The position numbers and the translations under genes were made by a program. Shown in pieces: positions 4,558 through 54,914 of a DNA stretch of 64,000 nt (the stretch's first letter is position 1; each line of letters starts with the position of its first letter). Below the pieces are notes generated by a model that saw nothing but the letters and a program-made list of their open reading frames with translations, ran no database searches and was not told the DNA's origin. Source of the stretch: an uncultured archaeon (GTDB taxonomy: Archaea; EX4484-52; JAADEF01); assembly GCA_964407715.1 (NCBI GenBank), contig CAYOWP010000004.1, forward strand, positions 9,668 through 73,667, given 5' to 3'.

Positions 4558-4562
4558 CCTTA

Positions 4563-10023: not shown

Positions 10024-10031
10024 ACATCACC

Positions 10032-10694: not shown

Positions 10695-10718
10695 AGAACA
10701 TCACCTCAAAATCTCATG

Positions 10719-14345: not shown

Positions 14346-14395
14346 TTTAAAAATTTTTAGATTTTATCACCCAACAAGAGACTTCCTCATCAAAA

Positions 14396-14945: not shown

Positions 14946-15001
14946 ATGGGTTAAGAAGCGAAAAGTTTCTGAAAAGGATAGTATGGAGCAACATGGATAG
15001 T

Positions 15002-15156
15002 GGCATTATCCAATCATTCTCCATTTGTTAAGCGGAAGAGTAACCTCTTAAAGAACCGCATTAAAGTAGCGAACCTTATAGAGCTGATGCGATTACCGCT
15101 ATAAGTGCTATTTGCGCGTTAAATTTCCGCTTAACAATAAAAAATTTTGGACAAAG
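15002..15156. mobile_element. MITE-like element (short copy) with terminal inverted repeats
   Basis: 5' GGCATTATCCAATCATTC...TTGTTAAGCGGAAGA and 3' TTTCCGCTTAACAATAAAAAATTTTGGACAAAG are inverted complements; shares the AAGAACCGCATTAAAGTAGCGAACC core with copies at 38.1, 44.1 and 45.7 kb. Confidence 0.65.
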
Positions 15157-15243
15157 CCCTCAATGCCTAATGAAGAGTTAATATTTTAAATTTTTTGGTT
15201 TATATCTCTTATTTTTATTTTTATTTTAAGTTTATGGAGGGAG

Positions 15244-15486
15244 ATGATGAGGTTTGAGAAAATATCTCGATTAACAGAGATTTGTATTAAAGAGGGAGGT
15301 AACTTTTATGTTATCTTGAATGGCAATGTTTATTGTGGGATAGCTCGTACTCGCGGTCCTGTAGAATGTCCATATTGCTGTAAAGAAAAAGACATAAATG
15401 GGTTATATAAGTGTACATATGAAGGATATACAAAAATTAGGGATATGATTCTCTACAAAAAACCGCTTAATGATAAGAAATTATAA
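15244..15486 (+). CDS. small cysteine-containing hypothetical protein
   Basis: 80 aa; CGIARTRGPVECPYCC...C pattern suggests a metal-binding knuckle. Confidence 0.25.
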   Translation: MMRFEKISRLTEICIKEGGNFYVILNGNVYCGIARTRGPVECPYCCKEKDINGLYKCTYEGYTKIRDMILYKKPLNDKKL

Positions 15487-17062
15487 AATTTTTTATAATT
15501 ATATTAACAATATGAAGATTGAACATTCAGGAACTTTTCCTTATTCAAAGATCCTTTTGTATGGAATGATAATTGAAATTGGATTGTTTTCATTTATAAC
15601 ATCTTGGTATTTTTATCCATGGGATTTTTTGTCATATTTGCTAAATGGGGATTACTTATTTGGGAATGGAGAATATTATGAAATATACAGACCTCCTTGC
15701 CTCTCTTTTTTCCTCTTTCTATTGAAATTATTTTTTCAAAATAAATATCTTATATTATTTTCCTTTATTTTTATGTCATCAATATTTTTTATTTACTCTA
15801 TAGAACATATCTTAAACTCATTACCCATCAAAAATAGAGATCATGCAAGGTTGCTGATATTTTTTGTACTTGGTATGAATCCTGTCTTTATTGCTTTCTC
15901 TTTTATCCCATCGGGTACTGAAATCATTTCTATAAGTTTCGCTATGTTAGGAATCTCATACCTTCTTTCTTCCAATGGCATAAAAGATGCAACATTAAGT
16001 GGAATCTTGCTCTCACTCTCTTCCCTAACAAGATATAATTTTCTAATTTTGTTTCCTATCTTGTTTTTTCACAGAAAACTTAAGAAAATATTTTTTGCAA
16101 TTGTTTCATTTTCTATGCCTTGGCTCTTCTGGCTAATATATAACAAAGTAATGTATGGTAAATTCCTTTATAGTTTTATAGACTCATATTTCCTTAATGT
16201 ATACTATCGAGAAACAATATCACAATCACCTTCTTTCAATGAACTTCTTTTCTTATTCGTGATTATCATTACAACATCTCTTTTTTTAATATACGTGCTT
16301 AAAAAATTACTTTTCTATCATATAGAATACAAAAAGCAAATAATCGCTCTGCTTTTTATATCATTATATATTTTATTGACCTCCCTCTATACCTTTATTA
16401 TTATGCCTCTAAAAATAAAGAGATATATTTATCCTATAACTATCTCTTATATTCTCTTTGTTCTAATCTACCAAATGCTAATATCTAGCAAAAGAAAAGT
16501 AAAAATCAACAAAAGAACCATAAAAATTGGAGCAATATCTTTTATCATCTTGCTTGTTTCTTTTAATATTTTTTATGCGCAATATCTCTCTTTTTATGAG
16601 TTCAAAAATCACTATGCTCCAATCCAAGAAGAAATCGAAAATGTTTATGAATATATAAAAAATGCTTCCTGTATATACTCTGATTATTGGATTTATTATA
16701 ATGCTCTTAATATTAAAGCATATCCTGAAGGATTCTTATATGATCCGCTTACAAAATCTTTTGATACACGTAATCTCAATAGTAATTGTTCATACATTAT
16801 CTTGCATGAAAATAAAGTAGATATCTTTCCTTATTATAATGAAACCTTTAAAATGAAAGAGATAAATCAAACAAAGATATATTTTATATCCTCAGTACTC
16901 TTAAGGAAAGAAAGCACTCAAAATGCATACTTTAAAAGATATAAAAATAAAGTGGTCATAGATAACATATATTGGTATTCTTTGTTGTATGAAGATCCAA
17001 ATTTATTTTATAAAGTATGCTCAGATGCTTTTGGCATTTTCTCTTTTGCAATGTGCAAGTGA
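15470..17062 (+). CDS. polytopic membrane protein, GT-C-type glycosyltransferase-like
   Basis: ~13 predicted TM helices with a short soluble C-terminal region; resembles PMT_2/ArnT-like membrane glycosyltransferases by architecture only; real start probably internal (MKIEHSG). Confidence 0.35.
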   Translation: MIRNYKIFYNYINNMKIEHSGTFPYSKILLYGMIIEIGLFSFITSWYFYPWDFLSYLLNGDYLFGNGEYYEIYRPPCLSFFLFLLKLFFQNKYLILFSFIFMSSIFFIYSIEHILNSLPIKNRDHARLLIFFVLGMNPVFIAFSFIPSGTEIISISFAMLGISYLLSSNGIKDATLSGILLSLSSLTRYNFLILFPILFFHRKLKKIFFAIVSFSMPWLFWLIYNKVMYGKFLYSFIDSYFLNVYYRETISQSPSFNELLFLFVIIITTSLFLIYVLKKLLFYHIEYKKQIIALLFISLYILLTSLYTFIIMPLKIKRYIYPITISYILFVLIYQMLISSKRKVKINKRTIKIGAISFIILLVSFNIFYAQYLSFYEFKNHYAPIQEEIENVYEYIKNASCIYSDYWIYYNALNIKAYPEGFLYDPLTKSFDTRNLNSNCSYIILHENKVDIFPYYNETFKMKEINQTKIYFISSVLLRKESTQNAYFKRYKNKVVIDNIYWYSLLYEDPNLFYKVCSDAFGIFSFAMCK

Positions 17063-17154: not shown

Positions 17155-17907
17155 ATGTCTCAACGAGTTATAGGGATTTTGTCAGGTAAAGGAGGAGTGG
17201 GAAAAACTGTCACATCTCTAAATCTTGGGTTGGCATTACATCAATTCGGAGAAGATGTTGTTGTAATAGATGCAGATATTACAGCTTCAAATTTAGGGTT
17301 GCATTTAGGAATGTACAATTTTCCGCATGGTCTTCAAGATGTATTAAATAATGATCTCGACATCGAAAAGGCAATGTATATGCATCATACAGGATTACGA
17401 GTAATACCAGCATCATTAGATATCTCATCTTTAAAGGCAGATATCTCACAATTAAAGAAGGTAGTGAAGGAAATCCCTGCAGAAATAATACTTATAGATG
17501 CTCCACCAGGCATAAATGAAGATGTATTGGCTGTGTTAAATGCATCAAAAGAAATTATGATCGTAACAAATCCTGACATTCCGACAGTTACAAATGCCAT
17601 GAAGATTTCACGGGTATCAGAAAAATATAAAAGGCATGTTTCTGGTGTGATAGTTAATAGATACCTTGGAAATGCATATGAATTAAATATTGATGAGATT
17701 GAAATGATGATAGAATCACAAATATATGGTGTAGTACCTGAAGATCCTTATGTGAGAGAAAGTATTTATCAAAAAATTCCAATTGTGGCGTATAAACCTT
17801 TTAGTCCTGCATCAATAGCATTTAAACAGATTGCGGCTAAGATAATAGGTAAGGTATATAAACTCCCAAGATTTTATAGAATAAAAAGATTATTGGGATT
17901 AATATGA
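17155..17907 (+). CDS. MinD/ParA-family P-loop ATPase
   Basis: Deviant Walker A GKGGVGKT; DAPPG motif; 250 aa; stop overlaps the start of the next gene (ATGA). Confidence 0.8.
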   Translation: MSQRVIGILSGKGGVGKTVTSLNLGLALHQFGEDVVVIDADITASNLGLHLGMYNFPHGLQDVLNNDLDIEKAMYMHHTGLRVIPASLDISSLKADISQLKKVVKEIPAEIILIDAPPGINEDVLAVLNASKEIMIVTNPDIPTVTNAMKISRVSEKYKRHVSGVIVNRYLGNAYELNIDEIEMMIESQIYGVVPEDPYVRESIYQKIPIVAYKPFSPASIAFKQIAAKIIGKVYKLPRFYRIKRLLGLI

Positions 17908-20285
17908 GAAAAAGAAAATTTTTGTTGTGTAGTGTGGTGGTATTCTTACTTTTGATATCTCTTAAAAATGTTTATGCTCAAATTGAAGTTATTAGTTATG
18001 ATAAGTATGTTATCTTTTCTGATGAGGAATTAAAAACAGTAAGTGTAAGCTTTGCATGTCAAAAAGATAATGCTTCTGTAACTGATGCAATTGCAAAATA
18101 TGATAATTTCGGGTTTGTAAAAGCCACTTATAATGGAGCATACTATACAGCAAACCTTCAGATATTCAATATGCTAGGTCTTTATGGTAATAAGACGATA
18201 ACTATTTCATGTATCTATTCTGATTCAACAACAGAAACCAAGTATATACATATTATAGTAGATAAAATATATTTAGAAATTAAGGAACCAACATTCTCTG
18301 ACCCAGTTGAGGTATATAATGGAGAATATGTTACCTCATTAAAAGTTATGCTCAGTTCTTATTATCTTAATACTGATCCCTATTCATTACAAAATCTAAG
18401 AGTTGTGCTAAAATCGTCTGAGAGCACATATACTATAGAAAGTCCTTTAATATCATACAATGGGAATGAGATGAACATAATATTTTATGTTCCATATGAT
18501 ATAAAAGAAGGATTATATGATATCTATGTTAAAGCAGCATACTCGTACTATGGAACAAATTTACAATTAGAATCCAAATCACCAAGAAGTTTAAATGTAC
18601 GCTCACCTATAAAGATAGAAATGCTTTCTCCTTCCAAAGGAAGTACAATAAAGCTGGATACATCAAAAAGAATTTCTATATCCTTTAAAGTATATGAAAA
18701 AGATGAAGAATTAATTGATCTCAGTGATACCAACTTCAAATTTAAACTTGGAGATAAGGAATTAGAATATGAGGTAAAATATGATGAGCAAAATGCAAGA
18801 TATGTTGCAACAGTATATTTAGTGAAAGGTAATGATGGTAACAAAACACAAGATACTTTATTCATTTTCATTAAAGATTATAAAGATTATCCTGAACTTA
18901 AATTCCCTATTTTGAATGTGGAGTATGTTGTATCACTTAAAGGATCAACATTAATAAAAGGAGGTAAGATTATAAATGCGAAATTTATACTTGAAGGAAA
19001 CAATAAAGTATATGAGTTTTCCACAGATAATAAAGGTAATTATAATATTCTTGTGCCAAAAGGAACATATAATGTAACATTAATATTAAATAATATAGAC
19101 AAAATTATATTTTATGATGTTGAAATAGATAATACCTTAGACTCTTTTATAAAGATAGATTATCCTTCAATATCTAATGATAAATTCAGAATTATAAAAT
19201 CTCTTGTGGTTGAGATATCTTCTCCATATTCATATGCAAAATCAGAGATTTATTATGATGACACTAAAATAGTTGATGAAAGAAACATTATTGCATTATA
19301 TTGTGATTATTGGAATTTTGGTTTACAGAAATGTAATGGTGATTTAAAGAAATATGATTATAATATAAATATAATATCTAATAGGATATATCTTGACAAA
19401 TTTGAAGGTAATGTCATTATCTCAGAAAAAAAGAGGCTCTATATCACATTAGATGTGGAAAAAAAAGATTATTATGTAGGTGATGAAATAAAAGTCACAG
19501 GATATATAAAGGATTTTGATGGCAATCCACAAAGTGGTATCGAGATAAAATATAAGATAAAAGGAACAGATATAGAAGGAGATGTGAATACAGATGAAAA
19601 TGGCAAGTTTGAGATATCTTTCATTGCGCCTAATATAAATAGAAGATATGAGAAAAAGGAATTAGTAGTGTTCATTCCATCTTCAGAAGTTAAGGCAGAA
19701 AATAAAAGCATAGTGTTTAACATTGAAAAAAGAGTACGATTAGTTGGTTATGTTGAAGAAATAGTAGATGTGTACAAAGGAGTAGAAACAGAGATACCTA
19801 TAACAATATCAAATGAGGGAGATCTTGATTTAACAGATATAGAGATAAGATTGGCAGGTATCAAAGAGGATTGGTATACTTTCACACCTTCCTTTATCGA
19901 AACTTTAAAAGCAGGAGACAAAGTCAAAGTTAGATTAAGAGTAAAAATTACATGTGGTAATGAATGTAAAGATTATTACTTTGTTAATATGCGCATAAAA
20001 AGCAAAGAAGCAACAGAGGATGTAAGTTTTACATTGAGGGTATTGGATAAAGCCAACACCACTGCTACGCTATCAAGTAAGCAAACTCAGGAAAAAAGCA
20101 TATTTTCAGGAATCTCAGATGCCATAACAGGAAAAATAACAAGCATAAATATAAATAGCAGCAATGTCAATTATTATATAATCATTGCATTTTTCATAGC
20201 AGCATTTATAATAATAACCATAAAGAAAAGGTCGCGCAGAAGATCAAGGATAAGCAGAGCAATTATAATAAAAAAGAATTTTTAA
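17904..20285 (+). CDS. large secreted surface protein (signal peptide, C-terminal TM and basic tail)
   Basis: 793 aa; N-terminal signal LLCSVVVFLLLISLKNVYAQ; many NxS/T sequons; C-terminal IIIAFFIAAFIIITIKKRSRRRSR membrane anchor. Confidence 0.5.
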   Translation: MRKRKFLLCSVVVFLLLISLKNVYAQIEVISYDKYVIFSDEELKTVSVSFACQKDNASVTDAIAKYDNFGFVKATYNGAYYTANLQIFNMLGLYGNKTITISCIYSDSTTETKYIHIIVDKIYLEIKEPTFSDPVEVYNGEYVTSLKVMLSSYYLNTDPYSLQNLRVVLKSSESTYTIESPLISYNGNEMNIIFYVPYDIKEGLYDIYVKAAYSYYGTNLQLESKSPRSLNVRSPIKIEMLSPSKGSTIKLDTSKRISISFKVYEKDEELIDLSDTNFKFKLGDKELEYEVKYDEQNARYVATVYLVKGNDGNKTQDTLFIFIKDYKDYPELKFPILNVEYVVSLKGSTLIKGGKIINAKFILEGNNKVYEFSTDNKGNYNILVPKGTYNVTLILNNIDKIIFYDVEIDNTLDSFIKIDYPSISNDKFRIIKSLVVEISSPYSYAKSEIYYDDTKIVDERNIIALYCDYWNFGLQKCNGDLKKYDYNINIISNRIYLDKFEGNVIISEKKRLYITLDVEKKDYYVGDEIKVTGYIKDFDGNPQSGIEIKYKIKGTDIEGDVNTDENGKFEISFIAPNINRRYEKKELVVFIPSSEVKAENKSIVFNIEKRVRLVGYVEEIVDVYKGVETEIPITISNEGDLDLTDIEIRLAGIKEDWYTFTPSFIETLKAGDKVKVRLRVKITCGNECKDYYFVNMRIKSKEATEDVSFTLRVLDKANTTATLSSKQTQEKSIFSGISDAITGKITSININSSNVNYYIIIAFFIAAFIIITIKKRSRRRSRISRAIIIKKNF

Positions 20286-20297
20286 AAGTGATGTCAT

Positions 20298-23200
20298 ATG
20301 AGAACATGGAAAATCATGTTTTTGTTATTGTTTTCCCTTTATTTTATTGTATCTGAAATACATGCTTATAAAATTTATTTTGAAGTTCAAACATATGATA
20401 GGAAATATAACTTCTCAGATAAAGTAGTCCTTGATGACTCAATAAATAACAAAATTTATTTTTATTTAAGGCAAGATGATGGAGAAGACAATATAACAAA
20501 TATAACATTTTATCTTCCTGGAGATGTTACCTTCACAGGTAAAAATGATACTTCTCTTGGTGATGCAGCAGATTTTGGTGTAAATTCTTCCAATCAATCA
20601 ATTGGGCAGTGGAATATAACAGATAGCACCCAACTAAAAAATAGTTTTGGAAGTTTTTGGATGGAGGTTAATGTTCCTATAGATAAGGAAAAGGAATATA
20701 CTTTCCAATTAAATATCACATATAAAAATAAAAGCGGGATCTTACGTAATTTCACATTGTGGGTTGATACTCTTTCTCCAAGGGATGTCAAAATAACAAA
20801 GGAAAATGATTATGAGTATTATAATATATCTGAAAACTTGATAGTGGAAGTCTCTTCCTATGATGCTTTATGGAACAAAACTATTCTTGCTGTAGTGTTT
20901 AAGAACTCAACAAATTATCCTTATTTACCTGAGAACACTACCTATTTCATATATGAAAATTCACATATAGAAAACTTTACATATGAGGTTCCAAGTAAGA
21001 TAATTATCCTTAAGGATATCATAAATGGCACTACGTATAATGTTCTTGTTAAAAAAATAGAGACATCATCAAACACATATTATATCATGTTAGGTAATTT
21101 CACTAATACCATAAATAATGAATGGTTTAATGGAGGTTTTGTGTATGATAAAGAAAATATCTCTCAATTTCTTTATATTATTAATTTTGACAAAGATCTT
21201 CTTATTAATAAAAGCGGAATATACTATGTGAATGGCACTTCATTGCTTTTGGATTCTCACCAATTTGATTATCTCAATGTTAATCTAAGTTATGGTTTTG
21301 TCAATTTAAGTGGATTGCAAATAGCATATAGTAATCTATCTTTTAATGTCTCATATGTTATTGAAAATACAACTCTTGTATTTAAACCTCTTTATGATGG
21401 AAATTACTCTGTATTTGTAGAGGTTTGGGATTTGTTCTCAAACACTTCCTCAGAAATATCATATGAAATAAATAACTCGCCTTTAGTGTCACCACCTACA
21501 GTATCTTTGGATATAGTTAACGGAACTAGGATTTTGGTAAATAAACCATTTCATTTTACTTTTACATTGGATGATGAGGCTCAAAATTCATCATGCTCCT
21601 TATATCTCAATAATAGTTTAGAAGATTCCATATCTAATATAGGATCAGGAAAATATTCCCTTTCCTCTACACCAACACAAGCGAAATATTATGTGGTTAA
21701 TATCACATGCATAAATGACTTTAAATTAAAAGGCGCTGATTTTAGAGAAATCTATGTTGAGGACAAACCAGATCTCAACTTGTCTTTAGTATCAATTTCA
21801 CCATCTGCATATGGATTAAATGATGAGATAAATATCTCATATAATATAAGCAATTTGGGCTCCTCAAATGCAAATCAAGTTAATATCACATTCAAAGTAT
21901 GCTCTGATTCCTCATGTACAAATATCTTACACGAAAAGTATACAGAAATCAATACGCTTTCCGCAGATGAGTATAAGATAGATTGGTTCAATTATACCAT
22001 AAAGGATTCCTCTACTCTCTATATAAAAATGGATGCTTATTCCAATGATACTGATTTTGATTATTCAAATCAAAACCTATCTCTTATTTTATCTCCAACA
22101 ATTTCTATAAGTTATGCTGTATCAGAATCAACAGAGGATTTAAAACCTGGAAGTGATCTAACTATTTATGTAAATGTAGTTCACTATGATGGAACATATA
22201 TCAGCGAGCTTAATGAAAATAACTTCACTATTTATGATTATTGGCATTATATAGGGAAGTATAGAAATAAAACCAAAAATTTATATCTCATCAATAATTT
22301 TGGTAATGGGACATATAAATTTGCTTATACCTTGCCTAATATTTCCTCTAATGAGAAGTATTATGAGTTCGGTGCACATAAATTAATCTTAGAAGTTAGA
22401 ACAAATAAATATAAGAAAATCAATACAACTGAATTGAACTATGATATACAGGCTCCATTTGTTGAGCTTTATTTCAGTGATGTCCCTTCTAGTATGAAAG
22501 AAGGTGATAAAAAGACAGCATATATCAAAGCCAAAAACCTTGGAGATATGACGATTAACACAATTAAAATAACAATAAAAACATCCTCAACCTCAAAACT
22601 CACATTTAACGGAGATTCCTCTTATTCCTGCAATATAACAGGATTAACTCCTGGAGATACTGAGTCATGTAGTTTTACCTTAAAGGCAGAAGATACGGGA
22701 GATGTGGAGATTTATGTAAGTTCATCTTCAAGTGATACATATTTCATCTTGGATAAGGCATACTCTAAGGATTATCCAGGTTTAGGAGGTAAAATATATT
22801 TCTATTCATATCCTGAAAAGGATATAGAAATAGAAGAAGAGCAAGAAAGTACAACACAGGAATCCTCAAGTGATGAAACAGAATCATCAGAGGAGACAGA
22901 AGAGAATGAAGAAACATCACAAACATCTACAACAGAAGAAAGCAATAAAGTGAGTGAGATCAAAATTGAAATCCCTGAGAATGAATATTCATTTTTAATT
23001 AATGAGTCTAAAACAATTGAAATTAAAATAAAAAATATAGGAAACAAAACCGCATCTTCCTTATCCTTAGGATTAGAGTATGATAAGGAGAACCTAAATA
23101 TTACTCATGACTTCAAAAAATCCTCTTTGGATCCTGGAAAAGAATATGTATTTCATTTGAATGTCTCATCTCCTACTCAACGAGTCGGAAAATATACAAT

Positions 23201-23696
23201 AGCTATAACAGTTGTTTATGATAGCAATAAAGTAGCGGATGGGACATTAACCATTACTCTTTTACCTACAGAAAAAAAGAAAAAAGAGATAGAAGATATG
23301 TTAGAAAATATGAAATCTGAGATTGAAGAGTTGGATGTGCCAGAGGATATGAAAGCAGTATATGATCAAACAAAAAGATTTATTGAAGAAGCAGAGAATA
23401 AGATAAAAAATGGAGATTATGTATCCGCATATGCTTTATTAGAAAAAGCTCAAAAGAACATAAATGCAATAAAAATGTCTGCAACTTCAAAGGGAAAAAG
23501 CAAATGGTGGATATGGGTAATAGTAATACTTATTATATTGGGAATCATAGGAGGAGTGGCTTATTATTTGCTTACACCTCCAACATCAACATATCATCCT
23601 GAAAAAGGATATTCATTCAATCCAAAGGTATATGAGGAACAGAGAGCAAATTATATAAAGAGATTAAAAGAATCCCTTCAAAGAAAATTGAGTTAG
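20298..23696 (+). CDS. giant surface glycoprotein with CARDB-like domains
   Basis: 1132 aa; signal peptide; CARDB-like segments (DLNLSLVSISPSAYGLNDEINISYNISNLGSSNANQVNITFKV; EGDKKTAYIKAKNLGDMTINTIKITIK); acidic S/T/E linker; C-terminal coiled coil and TM. Confidence 0.55.
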   Translation: MRTWKIMFLLLFSLYFIVSEIHAYKIYFEVQTYDRKYNFSDKVVLDDSINNKIYFYLRQDDGEDNITNITFYLPGDVTFTGKNDTSLGDAADFGVNSSNQSIGQWNITDSTQLKNSFGSFWMEVNVPIDKEKEYTFQLNITYKNKSGILRNFTLWVDTLSPRDVKITKENDYEYYNISENLIVEVSSYDALWNKTILAVVFKNSTNYPYLPENTTYFIYENSHIENFTYEVPSKIIILKDIINGTTYNVLVKKIETSSNTYYIMLGNFTNTINNEWFNGGFVYDKENISQFLYIINFDKDLLINKSGIYYVNGTSLLLDSHQFDYLNVNLSYGFVNLSGLQIAYSNLSFNVSYVIENTTLVFKPLYDGNYSVFVEVWDLFSNTSSEISYEINNSPLVSPPTVSLDIVNGTRILVNKPFHFTFTLDDEAQNSSCSLYLNNSLEDSISNIGSGKYSLSSTPTQAKYYVVNITCINDFKLKGADFREIYVEDKPDLNLSLVSISPSAYGLNDEINISYNISNLGSSNANQVNITFKVCSDSSCTNILHEKYTEINTLSADEYKIDWFNYTIKDSSTLYIKMDAYSNDTDFDYSNQNLSLILSPTISISYAVSESTEDLKPGSDLTIYVNVVHYDGTYISELNENNFTIYDYWHYIGKYRNKTKNLYLINNFGNGTYKFAYTLPNISSNEKYYEFGAHKLILEVRTNKYKKINTTELNYDIQAPFVELYFSDVPSSMKEGDKKTAYIKAKNLGDMTINTIKITIKTSSTSKLTFNGDSSYSCNITGLTPGDTESCSFTLKAEDTGDVEIYVSSSSSDTYFILDKAYSKDYPGLGGKIYFYSYPEKDIEIEEEQESTTQESSSDETESSEETEENEETSQTSTTEESNKVSEIKIEIPENEYSFLINESKTIEIKIKNIGNKTASSLSLGLEYDKENLNITHDFKKSSLDPGKEYVFHLNVSSPTQRVGKYTIAITVVYDSNKVADGTLTITLLPTEKKKKEIEDMLENMKSEIEELDVPEDMKAVYDQTKRFIEEAENKIKNGDYVSAYALLEKAQKNINAIKMSATSKGKSKWWIWVIVILIILGIIGGVAYYLLTPPTSTYHPEKGYSFNPKVYEEQRANYIKRLKESLQRKLS

Positions 23697-23715
23697 AATA
23701 TAGGGAGATGAAACC

Positions 23716-24624
23716 ATGATAGAATATATTCTTTATATTATTGGGATATTCCTATCAACACTTGCTCTATATTTCACAGGCATTTTAAATGTTGATTTTT
23801 ATGATATTTCTTCTCTTCTTTTTATTTATAAATATGTTGATTTAAAGATGGTATTGGCATTTGTCTTAATCTATGGATTATCGCTATCTTTTCTTTATTG
23901 GATAAAAATAAAAAATGAGAATCCAAAACTTATGTTCTTAGCAAGTTTTGTTTCTTCTTTTCCATTTTTGATGCTTTCTTATTTTGTTTTTGATATTGGA
24001 TGGTTTATATTGCTTATTGTGTGTACATTGGGCATATCATATATCATTAATATGAATGTATTACGTGAAGAAAAAATATATAAAGTTATACCTTATGACA
24101 AACTCTCAGTTAAATTATTTAAGAATGTTTTATCTTTATTTTTTATTATTTTTGCTTTATTCCTTGCATTTACATCATCATCAAGGGATAATTCTATATA
24201 CATAAATAATCTAACATATCACATTGGAAAGATAAATCTAACAGATATAACCAATTTAGAGAACAAAATTATATCTCTTCAAAGAAATTATGCTATAAAC
24301 ATAGCAAATGCAACCACTTTCATATTAATGAATGAAATATTTAATGATAACTCGCTCTCATATAACACCAAGGTCCAGTGTTTAAGAGCAATAGACTCAA
24401 ATCGAGAAAATGTGTTAGATAAGATTGATAGAGAAATATCAAGGAATGCTTCAAACAATATTGGGCAATTTGAAGATATCTCTGGGGTTGTTGAGATATC
24501 AATAAAAGCATATCCTATCATAATAGGACTTTATGTATATGTGTTATTGGGTTTCACTTTCTTTTTTATATCTTTTGCCTCTCAGGTATTAGTTAAAATA
24601 TATAAGTTAGTATATCATAAATAA
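23716..24624 (+). CDS. polytopic membrane protein of unknown function
   Basis: 302 aa; ~6 TM helices and a central Asn-rich soluble loop. Confidence 0.35.
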   Translation: MIEYILYIIGIFLSTLALYFTGILNVDFYDISSLLFIYKYVDLKMVLAFVLIYGLSLSFLYWIKIKNENPKLMFLASFVSSFPFLMLSYFVFDIGWFILLIVCTLGISYIINMNVLREEKIYKVIPYDKLSVKLFKNVLSLFFIIFALFLAFTSSSRDNSIYINNLTYHIGKINLTDITNLENKIISLQRNYAINIANATTFILMNEIFNDNSLSYNTKVQCLRAIDSNRENVLDKIDREISRNASNNIGQFEDISGVVEISIKAYPIIIGLYVYVLLGFTFFFISFASQVLVKIYKLVYHK

Positions 24625-24630
24625 AAGTAT

Positions 24631-25122
24631 ATGATGCCCTCAACAGAATGTTTAAGTGATGAAGAAAAGATATCCTATTATCTAAGCCACGTAAAAAAAC
24701 CTGTGTTATTATTTATTGGATTTCCTTTTTCAGAGATAAAAAAATTTGAATCTCATGCAAAGGTAATATATCTCATTGGAGATTTAAAAGAGAAAAAATC
24801 TTGCAAAAAAATAAGTGCATTTTCCTCTATGGATGATTTTATCAATAATTTTACATCTCTTGATGCAAAGATAACACATATATTTGCTTATTATATTGGA
24901 TGGGATCAAATAAAAAACCAACTTCCTCCAAAATTTACTCTTAATAACTCAAAACTCTATCTCTTTATAAAAGTGCCATTTGAGAAATGGAAATCTTTTA
25001 TTGATAAGGATAGATATTTGATTGAGAATACCTTAAGTGATTATAACCTCAAATTTGATGATATTATCTCATCAAATAAAGAAAATTATTTTTATGGTGT
25101 TTTTGCAAAGGTGAAAGGATGA
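24631..25122 (+). CDS. hypothetical cytoplasmic protein
   Basis: 163-aa ORF; 4-nt overlap with the next gene. Confidence 0.3.
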   Translation: MMPSTECLSDEEKISYYLSHVKKPVLLFIGFPFSEIKKFESHAKVIYLIGDLKEKKSCKKISAFSSMDDFINNFTSLDAKITHIFAYYIGWDQIKNQLPPKFTLNNSKLYLFIKVPFEKWKSFIDKDRYLIENTLSDYNLKFDDIISSNKENYFYGVFAKVKG

Positions 25123-25799
25123 ACTTTAAAGGAATGTCTCCTTTATTATCTGGAGTGCTTTACATGACAATCATAGTTACAGGTATTTTGATAGTGATGG
25201 CATCCATTTATCCAAAAATAATGGATTTAAAGGAATACTCAAAAATAACAAATACAATAAAATGTGCTAGGAACATGGATTATGCTTTGTCTCTTTTAGA
25301 AAAATCATCTCTTAGAGGAGAACAGGAAATAGAATGTAAAATAAAAAATGCAAAGTTGTCAATTAAAAATGACACTATGCTTTTTATATTTCCACATATT
25401 GATTATTTATCTCTTGACATATTCAAAAATGAAGAATATACGTTAAATGAAGGTGTTTATGTCTATGATAATGGAAGTTATTTTCTTATGGGAAACAAAT
25501 ACTTAGAAGTTAATTTTTCAAAGATATATGCCAATAACATGATAAATATCTCGCAAATTATAAATAACATATATTATAAAAAGACTTCTAAAAATATTGA
25601 TGGCTCCTCTTTATATTTCATATTAAATGATGATCCCTCTATAAGCATAGGTAGAGGATATACGATAGCTGAGCGCTCTGGAGCATATCTAAAATATGGA
25701 AAAATAATTGCTCATGTGGAAAATGATAACGCTAAATATAATTTAACCTTTATTCTATATCCCTCGGCAGATTATATTATTATCTCTGTGGAGAGTTAA
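25119..25799 (+). CDS. candidate archaeal type IV pilin-like protein (class III signal peptide)
   Basis: MNFKG|MSPLLSGVLYMTIIVTGILIVMAS: short basic N-terminus ending KG, followed by a hydrophobic helix, the layout of prepilin peptidase (FlaK/PibD/EppA) substrates. Confidence 0.4.
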   Translation: MNFKGMSPLLSGVLYMTIIVTGILIVMASIYPKIMDLKEYSKITNTIKCARNMDYALSLLEKSSLRGEQEIECKIKNAKLSIKNDTMLFIFPHIDYLSLDIFKNEEYTLNEGVYVYDNGSYFLMGNKYLEVNFSKIYANNMINISQIINNIYYKKTSKNIDGSSLYFILNDDPSISIGRGYTIAERSGAYLKYGKIIAHVENDNAKYNLTFILYPSADYIIISVES

Positions 25800-25834
25800 A
25801 AGTATATATTTAACAAATATCTAATAAAATATTT

Positions 25835-27055
25835 ATGATGTTAAAAAGAAAAGGAACAGAATCTTTTTTTTATGTGTTGTTAGCAGGTTTGGGAATTTTT
25901 ATACTGATAGCTATAATCTCATTAAGTATTGATTATGTGGAAGTAGAGCATCCAGAGGAAGAGATTCCATATCTCCTTAATAAAAAAGGCATAGCCGATA
26001 CAATCAAAGAGAACAAGATATATTATTTTGATAAGTTTCTATTTAAATCCTTAGGTAATGTAGAGGAGAATAAAAGGACAATTTATATTGGAGATAAAAA
26101 CATAGGAAATGTCCTGGCATATGGTGTAGTTAGAGAGAAACCCAAAATAGAGATATATAATGGATTGTTTGGTAAGAAAAATGAAATAATTTATTTTAGC
26201 ACATATAATGCAAAAAAGGTTAGAATCTCTTTTGTTGTTAACAGAACAAACAGATATGGAAGATTGATCCTAAAATTTAATGGAAAAGAAATATTCAGGA
26301 ACCTAACATATGAAGGAGAGAGAATATTGGTTGAGATTGAAAAAGGAATAAAAAATAAAAATGTTTTGGAAATTATGTGTGAATCATCTCTACCAAAAAT
26401 ATGGGCTCCAACAAAGTATGAGATAACAAACTTAAGAATTGAAGCATTGGATTATATATCAAAGGATGCTTACATAGAATTTGAGATTCTTCCAGAAGAA
26501 TATCAAGGATTACGCTATGTTGAAATCAAATTTAATGTATTGGATACAAATGAATATGCTCCTCTCTCTTTTATAGTAAATGGAAAAAAGGTATTTGAGG
26601 ATGTATTTGATGCTGGTGCAGAGCCATATAGAGTATGGTTATATAGAAAGGACAATCTTAAACCAGGAATAAATGTTCTAAGAATGGAAACATATAACTC
26701 ATCATATTATGACCTCCTAAATGTAGAGATTAACATATATTATATAGGAAATGCACATGTATATGTGGATGAGAGTAATTTCAATATAAATCCTGATGAT
26801 TATGAGTTTATAGAAAAGAATAAGGATATTTTAGAGGGAGTTATCGAAATCAACACAAGAAGCATAAATCTTGATAAGGGCATAGTTTTCTATATTAATG
26901 GTGCTCGATACACTATCAGCAACTTAAGGAGTTATGCATCAAATTATCTCACATTTGATGTTGATCTCCTTAGAAAAGGTGTAAATTATCTGAGATGGGA
27001 AACACAAGGAAATTATGAGATAAAAGATATCAAGATAGGAGTTAGGAAAAAGTGA
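25835..27055 (+). CDS. secreted/pilin-like protein with class III-like signal
   Basis: MMLKRKG|TESFFYVLLAGLGIFILIAII N-terminus; 406 aa, remainder beta-rich. Confidence 0.35.
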   Translation: MMLKRKGTESFFYVLLAGLGIFILIAIISLSIDYVEVEHPEEEIPYLLNKKGIADTIKENKIYYFDKFLFKSLGNVEENKRTIYIGDKNIGNVLAYGVVREKPKIEIYNGLFGKKNEIIYFSTYNAKKVRISFVVNRTNRYGRLILKFNGKEIFRNLTYEGERILVEIEKGIKNKNVLEIMCESSLPKIWAPTKYEITNLRIEALDYISKDAYIEFEILPEEYQGLRYVEIKFNVLDTNEYAPLSFIVNGKKVFEDVFDAGAEPYRVWLYRKDNLKPGINVLRMETYNSSYYDLLNVEINIYYIGNAHVYVDESNFNINPDDYEFIEKNKDILEGVIEINTRSINLDKGIVFYINGARYTISNLRSYASNYLTFDVDLLRKGVNYLRWETQGNYEIKDIKIGVRKK

Positions 27056-27061
27056 TATGCT

Positions 27062-27481
27062 ATGAGTGAAAAAAAACTTACATGTCCTGTTGAAGGATGC
27101 AACAATGAAGTATATCTTGAGATGATAGATGGTGAATTATATTGGATTGATAAGATGAATCCATTACAACATAGAGGTAAAGTAATGGAATTACCTTCTC
27201 CAAAAAGGGAGCTTTTTTTGGGATATGCATATGAAAAGGGAATATTAAAAAAGGATAGCGAAAAAAAAGATCAAATAATACAATACACAACTCAGAATAT
27301 GAAAGTCCCCGTGGATAGCAAACAACACATCCCATATGATGCAGCGCTACTTTTTCTTATAGGCATCATATATATAATCTTCTCCTTTATGCCATTTAAT
27401 GAGTTTTCAAGCTCTCTTTTATATTTATTAGGTGGTTTCTTTATGATATTAGGCATTGTGGAGTATTTTTCACTTTATTAG
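27062..27481 (+). CDS. hypothetical protein with Cys knuckle and C-terminal two-TM anchor
   Basis: 139 aa; CPVEGCNNE N-terminus; C-terminal LLFLIGIIYIIFSF and LLGGFFMILGIV hydrophobic helices. Confidence 0.3.
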   Translation: MSEKKLTCPVEGCNNEVYLEMIDGELYWIDKMNPLQHRGKVMELPSPKRELFLGYAYEKGILKKDSEKKDQIIQYTTQNMKVPVDSKQHIPYDAALLFLIGIIYIIFSFMPFNEFSSSLLYLLGGFFMILGIVEYFSLY

Positions 27482-27489
27482 ATTAAAGT

Positions 27490-29337
27490 TTGGTGAATAG
27501 CATGATTAACATACTTTTTATAACCACGCTTTTTTTGGGATGGATGCTAAAATATATTGGATATGATACTCATTATTTTGTACTTTTAATCTTGTTCATA
27601 ATTGCTTATGGTATATTCTATATAGGTATAAAAGAAAACAAACAAAAAAGATTTTTGGTTTATGTTTTGTCTTCAAGTTTTATAATTGTTGTGTTGTGGG
27701 TATTGGAGTACTTTGAAATCTTATCTCTATCTATATATGACTCGCTCTTGTTATCTTTTTCTATATATTTGGCTGGAAGTATTGTTTCAAAACAAAAAAA
27801 TGAGATAATAACAATTTTTTTAACAATCATTTTCATAGGTGCTTTTATCTTTTATGTGCCAAACATATCCTTGGCAGAGATATATGGGGGAGATTTAACA
27901 CATCTTGATAACACCTTACAGAAGCTCCCTTTTATTGAAAGGGTAAAGGAAGGTTACAACATATTGATTCAGAGCTTAAAAAATATGACATATTATGAGG
28001 ATCTTGATTATCCTTCTGGTGCATCTAAGGAAAAGGAAAAAATAAGAGAATCTGTGAAAAAAGAGATAGATGATATTGTACATCTTGATATTTCCCCTTC
28101 CTCAATATCTCAAAAAGGAGATACGAAAAGCATTGTCTCGCTCTCTGCAAATAATCTCTTAAAAGATAGATATGCGAGAAATGTATATGTTGGTATGGAT
28201 GTTGGAAGTGAGGGAAGAATGTATGGTCTTGATGTGAATAGTGAAGAAGGATTCTGCTATGAAAATAATAAGAATTGCTATAGTGCAATAGACACAATAC
28301 CTCCACAAGGATTTGCACCTGCTCTATTCGAGATCATGCTTCCCCCATGTAAGAATGATTTTAATGCAGAAATTTATACAAAATATATCACTACAGCAAT
28401 TGGTGAAAAGGTAATATTTGTAGATAAGGGAGAATATAGAGATACTATATCATCAGAAGGTCCATTAACATTGGATATTGAACTTCTTCCAAAGAGACTT
28501 ACATATCCAGGAGAGGGAGACATGAAATTCATTATCAATATCTACTCATTGCTTAATAGCAATCAGTTTGAGAATCAACATGCATATTACAAATATTTAT
28601 TTCTTTCTATTCCAAAAGAGATAAATCTTGAAAGGGATTCAACATATTGTCCTTATCAAAAATATAGAGAGGAAGGAGGAAATACAATATATCTTTTTGA
28701 AATCAGAGATGAACTTCAATGCTTTGATAAAAATACTATTGGAGTGTTAACATGTAAAGCACAAATACCTGAAGAGAGGGTTGATGAGTTTATAAAAGGA
28801 TATAAGACATTTAGAGTTTATGTACCATATATATTTTATGGATCTTTTCCTTATAAAATAGAAACAATAAGTGATAAAGAATGTGAGAATGTCTTTAAGA
28901 AAAACACATTTGGATTGAGTGATGTAGAGTTTTTAAATAAAAGAGGATATTTAATCTCCTTCAGAAAAACATATAATGAAAAGGAAACAATAAACTTAGA
29001 AGATTTAGTAAGCGAGATGATAGATTTTTGTCATAATATCTTTGAAGGATCTTTTTCTGATCATGAATGTGCTTATGTTGTATTAAAAGGATATAAAGGA
29101 AAATTAAACATAGATTCATCAAGGTTCTCAAAGAGTTCAAAAGATAAGGATAAAGTTGTGTTACAAAAAGATAGTTCCTTAGATGATATCTTATCTAACT
29201 TGGAAAAGATATATGGAAATGAAATGGAAAAAGATGTGGAAATAATAAACAATTATGATGGTGAAGGAGATCTAAGTATAGATGTAAAATATAAATTTGA
29301 TTGTAGAGGTGGTAAAATAGTGGTTATCTTTGAATGA
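27490..29337 (+). CDS. membrane protein with large extracytoplasmic domain
   Basis: 615 aa; ~6 N-terminal TM helices then a ~450-aa soluble domain rich in Cys/Tyr. Confidence 0.35.
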   Translation: MVNSMINILFITTLFLGWMLKYIGYDTHYFVLLILFIIAYGIFYIGIKENKQKRFLVYVLSSSFIIVVLWVLEYFEILSLSIYDSLLLSFSIYLAGSIVSKQKNEIITIFLTIIFIGAFIFYVPNISLAEIYGGDLTHLDNTLQKLPFIERVKEGYNILIQSLKNMTYYEDLDYPSGASKEKEKIRESVKKEIDDIVHLDISPSSISQKGDTKSIVSLSANNLLKDRYARNVYVGMDVGSEGRMYGLDVNSEEGFCYENNKNCYSAIDTIPPQGFAPALFEIMLPPCKNDFNAEIYTKYITTAIGEKVIFVDKGEYRDTISSEGPLTLDIELLPKRLTYPGEGDMKFIINIYSLLNSNQFENQHAYYKYLFLSIPKEINLERDSTYCPYQKYREEGGNTIYLFEIRDELQCFDKNTIGVLTCKAQIPEERVDEFIKGYKTFRVYVPYIFYGSFPYKIETISDKECENVFKKNTFGLSDVEFLNKRGYLISFRKTYNEKETINLEDLVSEMIDFCHNIFEGSFSDHECAYVVLKGYKGKLNIDSSRFSKSSKDKDKVVLQKDSSLDDILSNLEKIYGNEMEKDVEIINNYDGEGDLSIDVKYKFDCRGGKIVVIFE

Positions 29338-29352
29338 ATTTGGAGGTGAGTT

Positions 29353-30369
29353 ATGAAAAAAAACTATAAGAGTTTATCGGTAATAAGCATATTGTTTTAT
29401 CTTGCATTATTATCTGTGATAGTAGTCATGCTTGTTATTGCTACAAAAAAGCATGTCTCATTTTTTGGAAATTTCTTTGGTGAAACCTCTGAACAATCCG
29501 CGGCTTATAATAGATGTCTCACTTATTGCCTTTCTGCATCCCCAAAAGACAAGTGCAAATATGGAGATAAAGAGATTTTATGTGCAGCATTTTTAAGCGT
29601 TTTTGGTTCTTCCTTTGTTTTTGATGATGAAATATTTAATGAAGGAAGTTTAACAGCATTAGGCATCAAAAAGGAAAACTTAGTAAGTAATGTTGGAAGT
29701 TCTGAAGAATACAAATGTAAGATTTATGATTTCTTAAATATAGAAAAAAGAACCTTAGGCAAAGGTATAGGTATCCCATCTTTGGATGATATAAGAAAGA
29801 GTGTTGAGAGAACCATAGAGAAATATGGCTCAGCTATAGAGGAGATATCAGAAAACGAGGGTATTGATCCTTGTATTCTTGTGAGCACAGTAGCAATTGA
29901 GAGTTCTGGGGGAGTTGTTAAAAGAACAAAATATATCTCTTGTGGAATTACAATGATTACCCCACAAAATTTGAGATCATTGGGATATTGTAATGCAAAA
30001 GAAAGTGATAAAGAATGTTGTGAAAAGATAGCTAAGAATGATAGAGCTGCCATTGAGTTAAGCGTTAAACTTTTTAAAAGGTTTGAGAATAACGTGAATC
30101 AATACATCTTTAAGAACAACTATCCTATAGATGAAAATGGAGTTTTCAAGTTGGCATATCTTTTCGCATATTATAATGGTGGTGGAAGTTGCATGGGTCC
30201 ATCTAAAAGTTGCAGTTTTACATCTTGTAAAAACTTAAAGGAAGACTTAAGAGGATTTGATAGCATTCCAATATTCATGTGTGCCTATAAACCTGGAGGT
30301 TGCATCGAAACTCAAGCGCATGTTACTAAATCTCTCTATGCATATAAAATATGTAAGGAGACGTGGTAG
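29353..30369 (+). CDS. Cys-rich secreted protein, possible lysozyme-like (lytic transglycosylase-like) fold
   Basis: 338 aa; signal/TM anchor; >20 Cys; AIESSGG...CGITMITPQN loosely matches the ES...GxMQxxP motif of SLT domains. Confidence 0.3.
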   Translation: MKKNYKSLSVISILFYLALLSVIVVMLVIATKKHVSFFGNFFGETSEQSAAYNRCLTYCLSASPKDKCKYGDKEILCAAFLSVFGSSFVFDDEIFNEGSLTALGIKKENLVSNVGSSEEYKCKIYDFLNIEKRTLGKGIGIPSLDDIRKSVERTIEKYGSAIEEISENEGIDPCILVSTVAIESSGGVVKRTKYISCGITMITPQNLRSLGYCNAKESDKECCEKIAKNDRAAIELSVKLFKRFENNVNQYIFKNNYPIDENGVFKLAYLFAYYNGGGSCMGPSKSCSFTSCKNLKEDLRGFDSIPIFMCAYKPGGCIETQAHVTKSLYAYKICKETW

Positions 30370-30415
30370 TCAATTGCAATGTGAGCTTCTCTAACACAAC
30401 TTTTTAGATGTTATC

Positions 30416-31045
30416 TCGCCTGTTAACCATAATTTGTTGAAAATGGTTAACGGGAAGAAATCGCTCTTCCAAAGCTTTGCGGCGGGATATCCTTTTTTGA
30501 AGGTTAGGTGCTTCACAACCGCTTTGAAATGTTAGCTGCTCTTATGTGTTTTCTTAGAGGGTTAGGTTTCCCGTTAACCAATTTTTTATTGAGAAGATTA
30601 TGGTTAACGGGAAGAAATCGCTATCACAAAAGTTTTTTTGAGTGCGCTATCCTCTTTTAAAAGGTTATCTGCTTCCTAACCGGTTTATTAGGTTAGCTGC
30701 TCTTATGTGCTTCATTAAGGTGACATCTTCCCGTTAACCAATTTTTTATTGAGAAGATTATGGTTAACGGGAAGAAATCGCTATCACTAAGGCTTCGCAG
30801 CATGCTAACCTTTATCAAGGGTTAGCTGCTTCCAAACCGCTTTAAAAGGTTAGCTGCTCTTATGTGTTTTCTTAGAGGGTTAGGTTTCCCGTTAACCATA
30901 TTTTTATTGAGAAGATTATGGTTAACGGGAAGAAATCGCTCTTCCAAAGCTTTGCAGCATGCTAACCTTTATCAAGGGTTATCTGCTTCCAAACCGCTCT
31001 GAAAGGTTAGCTGCTGTAATATGCTTCATTAAGATGACCTTTACC
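30416..31045. repeat. Repeat locus R3: ~4 tandem ~160-bp units
   Basis: Perfect hairpin CCCGTTAACCA-N20-TGGTTAACGGG at 30570-30611, 30730-30771 and 30888-30929 (period 158-160 bp); each followed by AGCATGCTAACC-N9-GGTTAGCTGCT and further GGTTAGCTGCTCTTATGTG half-sites. Confidence 0.85.
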
Positions 31046-31153
31046 CTTTAATCAACTTTAAAAAAGAAATGTCTTGATAACGCTAAAATTTGATAAACTT
31101 AAGATCAGCAAAATAGCATCACCTTTTTTAAATGTCAAGAGGAGAGATATTTT

Positions 31154-54912: not shown

Positions 54913-54914
54913 AA

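Follow-up and report, generated by a model that had tools for sequence, protein, structure and literature searches.

A predicted envelope module led by a MinD-type ATPase gene in an uncultured DPANN archaeon

The arrangement of genes in one region of an uncultured archaeon, and its recurrence in related genomes, suggest that a MinD-type ATPase belongs to a module of the cell envelope. The DNA analysed is a single stretch of 64 kb (called the window here), and the region in question is a block of ten consecutive open reading frames (ORFs) on the plus strand at positions 17155-30369. The first of these genes encodes an archaeal MinD, and the next two encode large proteins that are predicted to be exported and anchored in the membrane. 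Our preferred interpretation, held tentatively and at somewhat less than an even chance, is that the locus holds a lineage-conserved envelope module of DPANN archaea in which a membrane-binding MinD would spatially organise anchored surface glycoproteins. The window has a guanine-plus-cytosine (GC) content of about 30% and encodes archaeal housekeeping proteins, including eIF6, fibrillarin, PCNA, Cdc48, a DRG-type GTPase, and aminoacyl-tRNA synthetases. Its contig is also present in public metagenome assemblies. The named genomes with the most similar MinD are a metagenome-assembled genome (MAG) called 'Nanobdellati archaeon' (83% identity, partial gene) and MAGs of Aenigmarchaeota, which places the source among the DPANN archaea.

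The profile score and motifs of the first protein (250 aa, positions 17155-17907, plus strand) identify it as a bona fide archaeal MinD. It matches Pfam CbiA/ParA and scores 245.9 bits against TIGR01969 (minD_arch; E 3.5e-73), above the curated cut-off of 201.75. The deviant Walker A motif with its signature lysine (SGKGGVGKT) can be read directly in the translation, along with VIDAD and LIDAPPG, and the earlier call of a MinD/ParA ATPase with a GKGGVGKT motif is thereby borne out. The C-terminus forms an amphipathic helix, RFYRIKRLLGLI, and the helix pattern [FY]xx[IL]KK[LF]LG[LM][IL] is found in 11 of the 12 members of the clade. This helix is predicted to target the protein to the membrane. 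The stop codon of the MinD gene overlaps the start of the following gene by 4 nt (ATGA), as had been reported initially, and the closest relative has the same overlap between its MinD gene and a gene of the same type. We infer that MinD is co-transcribed with the surface genes, and it is probably translationally coupled to them. A role as TadZ or CpaE was considered and rejected. MinD is a single 250-aa domain without the TadZ-type N-terminal receiver-like domain, it scores 32.2 bits against CpaE_hom_Actino (cut-off 154.45) and 73 against BcsQ (cut-off 158), far below both, and tad genes were not found in scans of the window.

The second gene (17904-20285, plus strand) encodes a type I membrane protein of 793 aa. 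The predicted topology consists of a cleavable-type Sec signal at the N-terminus, a C-terminal transmembrane (TM) segment, and a basic cytoplasmic tail, so the initial description of a secreted protein holds for the signal and a C-terminal anchor can be added to it. Its domains are Ig-like or transthyretin-like (CarboxypepD_reg) and NEW3/CARDB-like. It is not enriched in N-glycosylation sequons (7 against 7.4 expected). A word-indexed search with it returned itself and one orthologue, and a PDB sequence search with its family found only a transthyretin-like domain. The third gene (20298-23696, plus strand) encodes a candidate surface glycoprotein of 1132 aa. It had been described as rich in sequons, and this is confirmed by a count of 49 N-x-S/T sites against 18.3 +/- 4.2 in shuffled sequences. 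Its architecture comprises a signal peptide, CARDB domains (Pfam, E 2.5e-13), an acidic linker of Ser, Thr, and Glu, a helical stalk, a TM segment at about residues 1074-1092, and a cytoplasmic tail of 38 aa. The Sec signal, dense sequons, and C-terminal membrane anchor are traits of S-layer proteins. A match to a known S-layer family, the conventional outcome that the initial annotation had allowed for, was looked for with both large proteins, and no S-layer model in Pfam or NCBIfam matched either of them; the matches were to CARDB, DUF11, and CarboxypepD_reg Ig-like domains only.

Sequence conservation is unevenly distributed in both large proteins. The 1132-aa protein has an orthologue with 39% identity in the closest relative, a locus designated L008 (GCA_054032155.1), and the identity between the two increases from 30% in the distal ectodomain to 41% in the middle ectodomain, 52% in the CARDB and stalk region, and 68% in the cytoplasmic tail, which is the best conserved part of the protein. 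Its C-terminus is also homologous to that of a 1398-aa protein at the locus L016 (5.5e-10). The 793-aa protein is 52% identical to its L008 homologue overall and 76% identical in the TM segment, where the stretch FIIITIKK[KR] is conserved; F768, I770, I771, K774, and K775, at TM and juxtamembrane positions, are invariant in all four aligned members. Other homologues of this protein are found at L012 (3e-54), L016 (1e-30), L017, and L018, and one lies near MinD at L010 (6e-29). A distribution of this kind would be expected of surface proteins that evolve quickly where they are exposed and touch a conserved partner through the parts in the cytoplasm and next to the membrane.

Comparison with other genomes shows that the block is composite and is not one conserved system. 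Loci were fetched around relatives of MinD and compared by BLASTP; scans of genomes and metagenomes with MinD yielded few loci, and these were short. At L008 six genes are kept in the same order as in the window, with identities of 80% for MinD, 52% for the 793-aa protein, 39% for the 1132-aa protein, 32% and 29% for a 302-aa and a 163-aa protein, and 39% for a 226-aa protein. The L008 block ends after the sixth gene and is followed by unrelated genes on the opposite strand. No homologue of the four distal genes of the window block, which encode proteins of 406, 139, 615, and 338 aa, was found in the related loci compared. At L016 only the MinD, 793, 1132, and 302 genes recur. The initial annotation had treated the whole 13-kb stretch as one system, and this view has to be given up in favour of a smaller unit. 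It had also counted twelve genes, while ten are present. Twelve are reached only with two plus-strand ORFs upstream, 15244-15486 (80 aa) and 15470-17062 (530 aa), which end 92 nt before MinD and probably account for the higher count. The spacings between the ten genes are, in order, -4, 12, 19, 6, -4, 35, 6, 8, and 15 nt. The arrangement exceeds chance, because gene order is kept in other genomes.

On either side of the module, the window and its relatives have different genes. In L008 and at the locus L004 the genes upstream of MinD encode Metallophos, NUDIX, and TIM proteins, while in the window they encode the 530-aa protein and an aldehyde dehydrogenase. Both flanks change while the module stays, so MinD is the first gene of the unit that is kept and moves with it. 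Pairing of MinD with a 793-family gene is found in seven other lineages, namely L008, L003, L012, L016, L017, and L018, and nearby in L010. The recurrence of this pairing, together with the difference in both flanks, upholds the earlier proposal that MinD belongs with the surface genes. It had been considered that MinD might instead be conserved with cell-division genes. No such conservation was found within the subfamily, and only the distant L019 (MinD 42% identical to that of the window), where the neighbours are housekeeping genes, has ftsZ about 4.5 kb away.

More distant relatives share a different set of neighbours. At L012/L013 (MinD 55% identical to the window) three genes for secreted or anchored proteins precede MinD, which is followed by a 793-family gene. 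The same five-gene arrangement is present at L017 (55%) and L018 (48%). The three proteins are a secreted protein of about 330 aa with a C-terminal TM segment, a protein of about 150-220 aa that combines an ASH/HYDIN-type Ig domain with a TM segment at the N-terminus, and a secreted protein of about 290 aa with a C-terminal TM segment. L016 (54%) has the three-gene set, MinD, a 793-like gene, and genes for the 1398-aa sequon-rich protein and a polytopic protein of 335 aa. Its gene order matches that of the window, and the 335-aa protein is a weak match to the 302-aa protein (E 0.007). Two contigs are incomplete: L003 (52%) is short and encodes an Ig-like protein, a protein of about 290 aa, MinD, and the N-terminus of a 793-family protein, and L006 (78%, over 58 aa only) ends inside MinD, with the Ig-like and ~290-aa proteins upstream. 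L010 (56%) also has the three-gene set and a 793-like gene, which are found about 4 kb upstream of its MinD gene, beside a KaiC-like ATPase. L014 (53%) lacks a 793-like gene and has a giant sequon-rich protein encoded divergently next to MinD. In all, giant sequon-enriched proteins adjoin the MinD of this subfamily in five lineages (z 6.7 to 10). In a neighbour-joining tree the surface-linked MinDs are spread over the whole clade, which suggests that the linkage is probably ancestral, with occasional loss or duplication.

Several other features of these loci were recorded. The KaiC/FlaH-like ATPase of L010 (PF06745; 5921-6613, minus strand) lies between an 890-aa 793-family gene and MinD; KaiC-like ATPases are associated with archaeal pilus loci (Makarova 2016, PMC4858521). 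L012/L013 have two MinD paralogues 5 kb apart, one at 4431-5177 (minus strand) and one at 10001-10747, of which one is beside an HTH (helix-turn-helix) regulator and the other is in the surface module, so the subfamily is subject to duplication. A set of genes for a MoxR AAA ATPase, a DUF58 protein, and a VWA (BatA-like) protein lies within about 8 kb of the MinD module at L014 (526-2707) and L018 (13111-16168).

The proposed mechanism starts from a MinD dimer that, in its ATP-bound form, would sit on the inner face of the membrane by way of its C-terminal amphipathic helix. The anchored proteins are proposed as its cargo on the basis of gene context, topology, and conservation. MinD would recruit or pattern the 793- and 1132-aa proteins through their conserved TM-proximal and cytoplasmic segments, and an adhesive or envelope patch, such as a site of host contact, might in this way be placed at a defined position on the cell. 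Three more proteins belong to the module: one is polytopic in the membrane, one is small and presumably cytoplasmic, and one, of 226 aa, resembles type IV pilins. For the processing and insertion of this pilin-like protein, the cell would rely on a prepilin peptidase and on FlaI/FlaJ-type machinery whose genes would lie elsewhere in the genome, and the four distal genes would add lineage-specific extracytoplasmic proteins. A stronger version of this proposal, which we regard as doubtful, is that DPANN archaea possess an attachment or envelope organelle that is organised by MinD and independent of pili. Its cargo would be Sec-exported, single-pass glycoproteins with Ig domains rather than a cytoplasmic or motor complex, and they would be concentrated at one site such as the host-contact zone.

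A number of observations weigh against a MinD-organised module. The evidence for it is genomic context throughout. The far tail of the 793-aa protein is poorly conserved (28%). At L015 (MinD 50% identical) the gene is surrounded by housekeeping genes only, and the second paralogue of L012 (52%) is unlinked to surface genes; because both belong to the same clade, MinD can work without a surface neighbourhood. The giant glycoproteins of L010 and L014 (42% identical to each other; z 10.0 and 6.7) form a family separate from the 1132-aa protein, and so the association of MinD with glycoproteins may reflect a general neighbourhood of envelope genes rather than a specific complex. Counts from a promoter and terminator scan did not exceed shuffle expectation, in a scan that used a bacterial sigma-70 model on archaeal DNA. 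An AT-rich, TATA-like box lies upstream of MinD and is uninformative in a genome of ~30% GC.

The block does not appear to encode the core of a pilus. Pfam scans that took in almost every window ORF of 100 aa or more did not find T2SSE/FlaI (PF00437-type), T2SSF/TadC, or Peptidase_A24, in agreement with the earlier statement that no FlaI/TadA ATPase or FlaJ/TadC platform is visible. The few remaining ORFs, unscanned or unassigned, do not resemble proteins of pilus machinery. T2SSE, T2SSF, and Peptidase_A24 were likewise not found within 8-10 kb of MinD in about ten related loci, and the polytopic 302-aa and 615-aa proteins of the block gave no T2SSF match at E values up to 0.1. Also, the wider core of three secreted or anchored proteins, MinD, and the 793-family protein, as found at L012, L016, L017, and L018, has no class III (prepilin-like) signal candidate under a relaxed rule. 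With no local FlaI, TadC, or prepilin peptidase, and no pilin in the wider core, the block is not a self-contained pilus system. The suggestion that the locus positions or assembles a novel appendage is weakened, as an appendage is not the obvious product of a core without a pilin-like gene. It had further been stated that MinD is the only nucleotide-binding component. This is correct for the locus, and the scans, which covered the window and the related loci, do not allow it to be claimed for the system. FlaG, FlaI, and FlaJ homologues are reported in most Aenigmarchaeota MAGs (PMC8407114).

Two proteins of the block were initially reported to have class III signal peptides. The rule used here requires [KR][GA] at positions -2/-1, a permitted residue at +1, and then 20 hydrophobic residues; it is a simplified form of the -2/-1/+1 requirements of FlaFind type (PMC3387779). 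It was applied to the 135 window ORFs with 60 aa or more, and its only genuine matches are the 226-aa protein (25119-25799, plus strand) and the 406-aa protein (25835-27055, plus strand), a third match being a 60-aa ORF at the edge of the window. Family evidence supports the claim for the 226-aa protein. Its N-terminus is MNFKG↓MSPLLSGVLY (the arrow marks the predicted cut), with class III motif and hydrophobic H-domain MNFKG↓MSPLLSGVLYMTIIVTGILIV. An exhaustive HMMER search with it found 99 cluster representatives, most of them 220-250 aa long and aligned over the full length. In 40 members the N-terminus is conserved as KKG↓(I/L)SP(L/I)(L/I)S(G/A)VLY or KKA↓QIW(I/V)SAVLY, and the L008 orthologue (39% identity) has KKS↓QAP, with Ser at -1. 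The Pfam family DUF7289 is matched by 16 of the 40 members (best E 2.8e-10), and the window protein itself falls below the threshold of 27 (12.4 bits, E 0.11). A few members have weak matches to arch_flag_Nterm (two of them to TIGR02537), GspG, and ComGD, and the N-terminal part of the family profile weakly matches an archaeal 'flagellin' filament chain, PilE1, geopilin, and a fimbrial protein.

The predicted structure of the 226-aa protein also resembles a pilin. An AlphaFold2 model built from the 40-sequence alignment, with a pLDDT (predicted local distance difference test) score of 89.9, has a helix at residues 6-62 (57 residues) followed by a beta domain, the 'lollipop' shape of pilins. 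A Foldseek search of the PDB with the globular head gave only generic beta-sandwich domains, the best of them from GH38 mannosidases and YidC (TM-score no higher than 0.36), and a solved pilin was not among the matches. In longer members of the family the same N-terminal module is followed by Laminin_G_3 lectin, beta-propeller, or InlB-repeat domains, and such fusions are typical of pilin-anchored adhesins. Because of the motif, the relationship to DUF7289, the weak pilin-profile matches, the shape of the model, and the adhesin fusions, we accept the 226-aa protein as type IV pilin-like, a well supported prediction. Among the loci compared its gene is limited to the lineage of the window and L008. 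For the 406-aa protein the evidence is the motif, which makes it a candidate. Its N-terminus is MMLKRKG/TESFFYVLL, with the predicted cut before T, so that Thr would occupy +1 and Glu +2. Neither the related loci nor the representatives of the 226-aa family contain a homologue, and Pfam and the PDB give no match.

Three other explanations of the block were weighed. The block could be the accessory half of a type IV filament system, with minor pilins, adhesins, and a FleN/MinD-type regulator, while the FlaI-like ATPase, the TadC/FlaJ platform, and the prepilin peptidase are encoded elsewhere in the genome. We consider this fairly unlikely. In its favour are the pilin-like 226-aa protein, the class III-like N-terminus of the 406-aa protein, and the fusion, in relatives, of DUF7289-type modules to adhesin domains of lectin and propeller type. 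FleN/MinD ATPases (arCOG00589, arCOG05608) occur in or near archaeal type IV pilus loci with minor pilins, adhesins, and membrane proteins; loci of clade 1 combine a MinD of arCOG00589 with large adhesins, five or more minor pilins, and additional membrane proteins, and pilin sets evolve independently of the ATPase/TadC modules (Makarova 2016, PMC4858521). Subsystem 4G always has a MinD-like ATPase and Ig-rich adhesin-like proteins (bioRxiv 10.64898/2026.04.22.720090), and FlaI/FlaJ homologues are reported in most Aenigmarchaeota MAGs (PMC8407114). Against this, the T2SSE, T2SSF, and Peptidase_A24 families are missing from the 64-kb window and from the surroundings of MinD in the related loci, the wider core has no class III candidate, and the pilin-like gene is restricted to one lineage. 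The 793- and 1132-aa proteins, moreover, have Sec-type signals and C-terminal anchors and not the N-termini of pilins.

The remaining two explanations make MinD incidental to the surface genes. One of them, which we judge unlikely, is an ordinary envelope cluster of S-layer type, in which the 1132- and 793-aa proteins are wall glycoproteins and MinD is a general cell-cycle or positioning ATPase that is a passenger in the operon. The 1132-aa protein has the look of an S-layer glycoprotein or stalk protein, with its Sec signal, sequons, Ser/Thr/acidic linker, stalk, and anchor; two families of giant sequon-rich proteins neighbour MinD in relatives, and MinD paralogues are also found away from surface genes. 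This explanation does not account well for the adjacency of MinD and the 793-family gene, which is kept despite the rearrangement of the flanks and over MinD identities of 48-80%, with a stop-start overlap in two lineages. Pfam and NCBIfam give no S-layer family match, and the conservation of the 1132-aa tail points to a partner in the cytoplasm. The last explanation, which we regard as quite improbable, is a variable island devoted to conflict or to the recognition of a host or partner. It would resemble polymorphic, hypervariable Ig-protein modules such as VARTIG, in which the upstream part is conserved and cassettes downstream are exchanged freely. Such an island would fit the GC content of the block (0.291, below the 0.330 and 0.326 of its flanks), the arrays of a dispersed 157-nt repeat on both borders, the breaks in synteny on both sides relative to L008 and L004, the distal genes without homologues, and the steep fall of L008 identity toward the exposed parts of the surface proteins. 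However, integrase, toxin, and immunity-like genes are absent from the block, the core module is conserved vertically with MinD, and the repeat also occurs at about 7.3, 44.2, and 55.8 kb and is therefore not a specific bracket. VARTIG itself consists of a large Ig protein and variable downstream genes, has no MinD, and is specific to Thermococcales (PMC8416519).

The closest known counterparts of the module that we propose differ from it in cargo or in context. In Haloferax, MinD positions the archaellum (bioRxiv 10.64898/2026.04.22.720090). The MinD of the window resembles that of Haloferax volcanii (TIGR01969/arCOG00589) in family, deviant Walker A motif, and C-terminal helix, and its role as a spatial organiser would be analogous. 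The Haloferax protein positions archaellum and chemosensory machinery, whereas the cargo of the window MinD is presumably not an archaellum. Genes for arCOG00589 MinDs are separate more often than they are inside pilus operons (PMC4858521), while the MinD gene of the window is a first cistron that overlaps the gene of an anchored protein. FleN/MinD ATPases are also often encoded beside 'unrelated intracellular or membrane proteins' (PMC4858521). The type IV loci with FleN/MinD (Makarova clade 1; 4G with arCOG05608 and the Ig-rich arCOG05616) share with the window a MinD-like ATPase, Ig-domain adhesin-like proteins, pilin-like proteins, and membrane proteins. They differ in having a secretion ATPase, TadC/FlaJ, and often a peptidase, none of which is found in the window or the related loci, and they are known from Thermoproteales, methanogens, and Thermococci rather than DPANN archaea. 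Unlike their counterparts in those loci, the large proteins of the window are of the Sec type with C-terminal anchors.

Other systems share single features with the locus. TadZ/CpaE of Tad/Flp pili, FlhG of flagella, and BcsQ of cellulose synthase are likewise MinD/ParA ATPases inside surface-structure operons. The window MinD has weak similarity to the BcsQ and CpaE profiles, far below their cut-offs, and a receiver domain, secretin, pilus ATPase, and synthase are absent. The 226-aa protein shares with DUF7289 and archaeal type IV pilin-like proteins the N-terminus KG↓xSP(L/I)(L/I)SGVLY and the layout of helix and beta domain, with a score below the Pfam threshold. The 1132-aa protein shares signal, sequons, linker, stalk, and anchor with the architecture of S-layer proteins such as SlaB, tetrabrachion, and the Haloferax S-layer glycoprotein (SLG), and differs in lacking a family match and in its conserved 38-aa cytoplasmic tail. 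The coupling of MinD to surface structures is already known, and less novel than the initial annotation implied, as MinD/FleN has been described with pilus loci and Ig-rich adhesins (PMC4858521; bioRxiv 10.64898/2026.04.22.720090). What is new is that in DPANN archaea MinD is associated with anchored glycoproteins of the Sec type, in loci that lack a pilus core. We found no description in the literature of this DPANN MinD module or of DUF7289.

The other genes of the block encode mainly membrane proteins. The multi-TM proteins mentioned in the initial annotation are confirmed as those of 302 aa (about seven TM segments), 615 aa (about five), and 139 aa (two). The 302-aa protein (23716-24624, plus strand) has about five TM segments, a loop of about 100 aa, and two more TM segments. 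Its L008 orthologue (32% identity) is found at 6e-24, and its weak match at L016 is in the same position. No family in Pfam or NCBIfam matches it, matches in PHROGs were at chance level only, and the possibility that it is a divergent half of TadC was discarded for want of a T2SSF signal. The 163-aa protein (24631-25122, plus strand) is soluble, with no signal or TM segment, and is presumably cytoplasmic. It has an orthologue only in L008 (29% identity, 1e-6) and no family match in Pfam or NCBIfam. PHROGs matches were at chance level for ten block proteins, a set outside which MinD and the 80-aa ORF stood.

The four distal genes appear to be a lineage-specific extracytoplasmic addition. In addition to the 406-aa protein, they encode a 139-aa protein (27062-27481, plus strand) in which a CxxxC segment at the N-terminus is combined with two TM segments at the C-terminus and for which no homologue was found in the related loci, a 615-aa protein, and a 338-aa protein. 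The 615-aa protein (27490-29337, plus strand, TTG start) has about five N-terminal TM segments and a large Cys-containing domain; a word-indexed search of 5.8 billion proteins returned only itself, and the PDB gave no useful match. The 338-aa protein (29353-30369, plus strand) was correctly described as Cys-rich, with 16 Cys, and is anchored by an N-terminal hydrophobic segment. It contains the SLT-like motifs AIES, GITMI, and AYYNGGG, noted by eye. Pfam SLT is the sole match of a trimmed segment and is weak (13.4 bits, E 0.057, below the cut-off of 21.3), the full-length protein matches neither SLT nor any PDB sequence, and an AlphaFold2 model from the single sequence is poor (pLDDT 43.5). 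This protein is possibly a glycan-cleaving, SLT-like enzyme, and if so it could be directed at the cell wall of a partner organism.

Upstream of the block, the 530-aa gene (15470-17062, plus strand) lies outside the conserved module and is absent upstream of MinD in L008 and L004. It encodes a polytopic protein with at least eight TM segments and no match in Pfam, NCBIfam, or the PDB. The sequence GEYYEIYRPP in its first loop resembles GT-C/PMT-type glycosyltransferases by eye; identification as a GT-C enzyme from this YRPP-type motif was dropped because these three databases give no support. The 80-aa ORF at 15244-15486, which precedes this gene, is Cys-rich.

A repeat of about 157 nt is found in gene-free stretches at both ends of the block. 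The left stretch (14346-15240) has at least two copies at 14497-14807, and the right one (30370-31153) has 3.6 copies at 30443-31015. The same repeat is present near 7250-7430, 44245-44308, and 55750-55950. The arrays were considered as borders of a mobile island, and this was set aside as the main explanation, given these dispersed copies and the lack of an integrase. The repeat unit contains the hairpins CGTTAACCA-(AT-rich)-TGGTTAACGG and GGTTAGCTGCT/AGCAGCTAACC, and its predicted RNA folding is stronger than that of shuffled sequences (z = -6.96). It has no match in Rfam, and L001, which is from the same organism, is the only fetched locus that contains it. Possible identities are a non-coding RNA, a MITE-like (miniature inverted-repeat transposable) element, or a regulatory array.

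Elsewhere in the window there is a type I CRISPR-associated gene set at 56120-62162, with Cas6 at 56120, Cas7/Csa2 at 60523, Cas5 at 61494, and a 549-aa ORF without a Pfam match at 56917. A 534-aa restriction-like gene with GmrSD_N (DUF262-type) lies inside this set at 58868-60472. Tandem Repeats Finder detected no CRISPR-like tandem array in the window. The longest ORF of an FtsY/SRP54-type GTPase (54016-54990, minus strand, TTG) overlaps a tRNA-His gene on the same strand (54915-54986), and the true start is probably further downstream. At 4057-5723 (minus strand) a gene for an HTH and Peptidase_M78 (IrrE-like) protein is followed by a 166-aa ORF; the Pfam scan covered the M78 gene of the two. 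This pair might be a toxin-antitoxin or regulatory module.

The locus bears on two poorly understood aspects of archaeal biology. The role of archaeal MinD is partly understood, with positioning of motility and chemosensory machinery known from one haloarchaeon, and little is understood of how DPANN archaea form and position the surfaces with which they contact a host. If MinD is a mere passenger, the locus is a set of markers for the envelope proteins of an uncultured lineage and is otherwise ordinary. A conserved family of DUF7289-type pilin-like modules, some of them fused to lectin or propeller adhesin domains, is also added to the surface repertoire of DPANN archaea. The operon-like linkage of MinD to anchored glycoproteins across several DPANN genera predicts a direct connection between the ATPase and surface display. 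If the organelle interpretation is true, the five-gene core would be an undescribed, conserved envelope-patterning system of Aenigmarchaeota-like archaea. The block of MinD and glycoprotein genes is a testable candidate for answering both questions.

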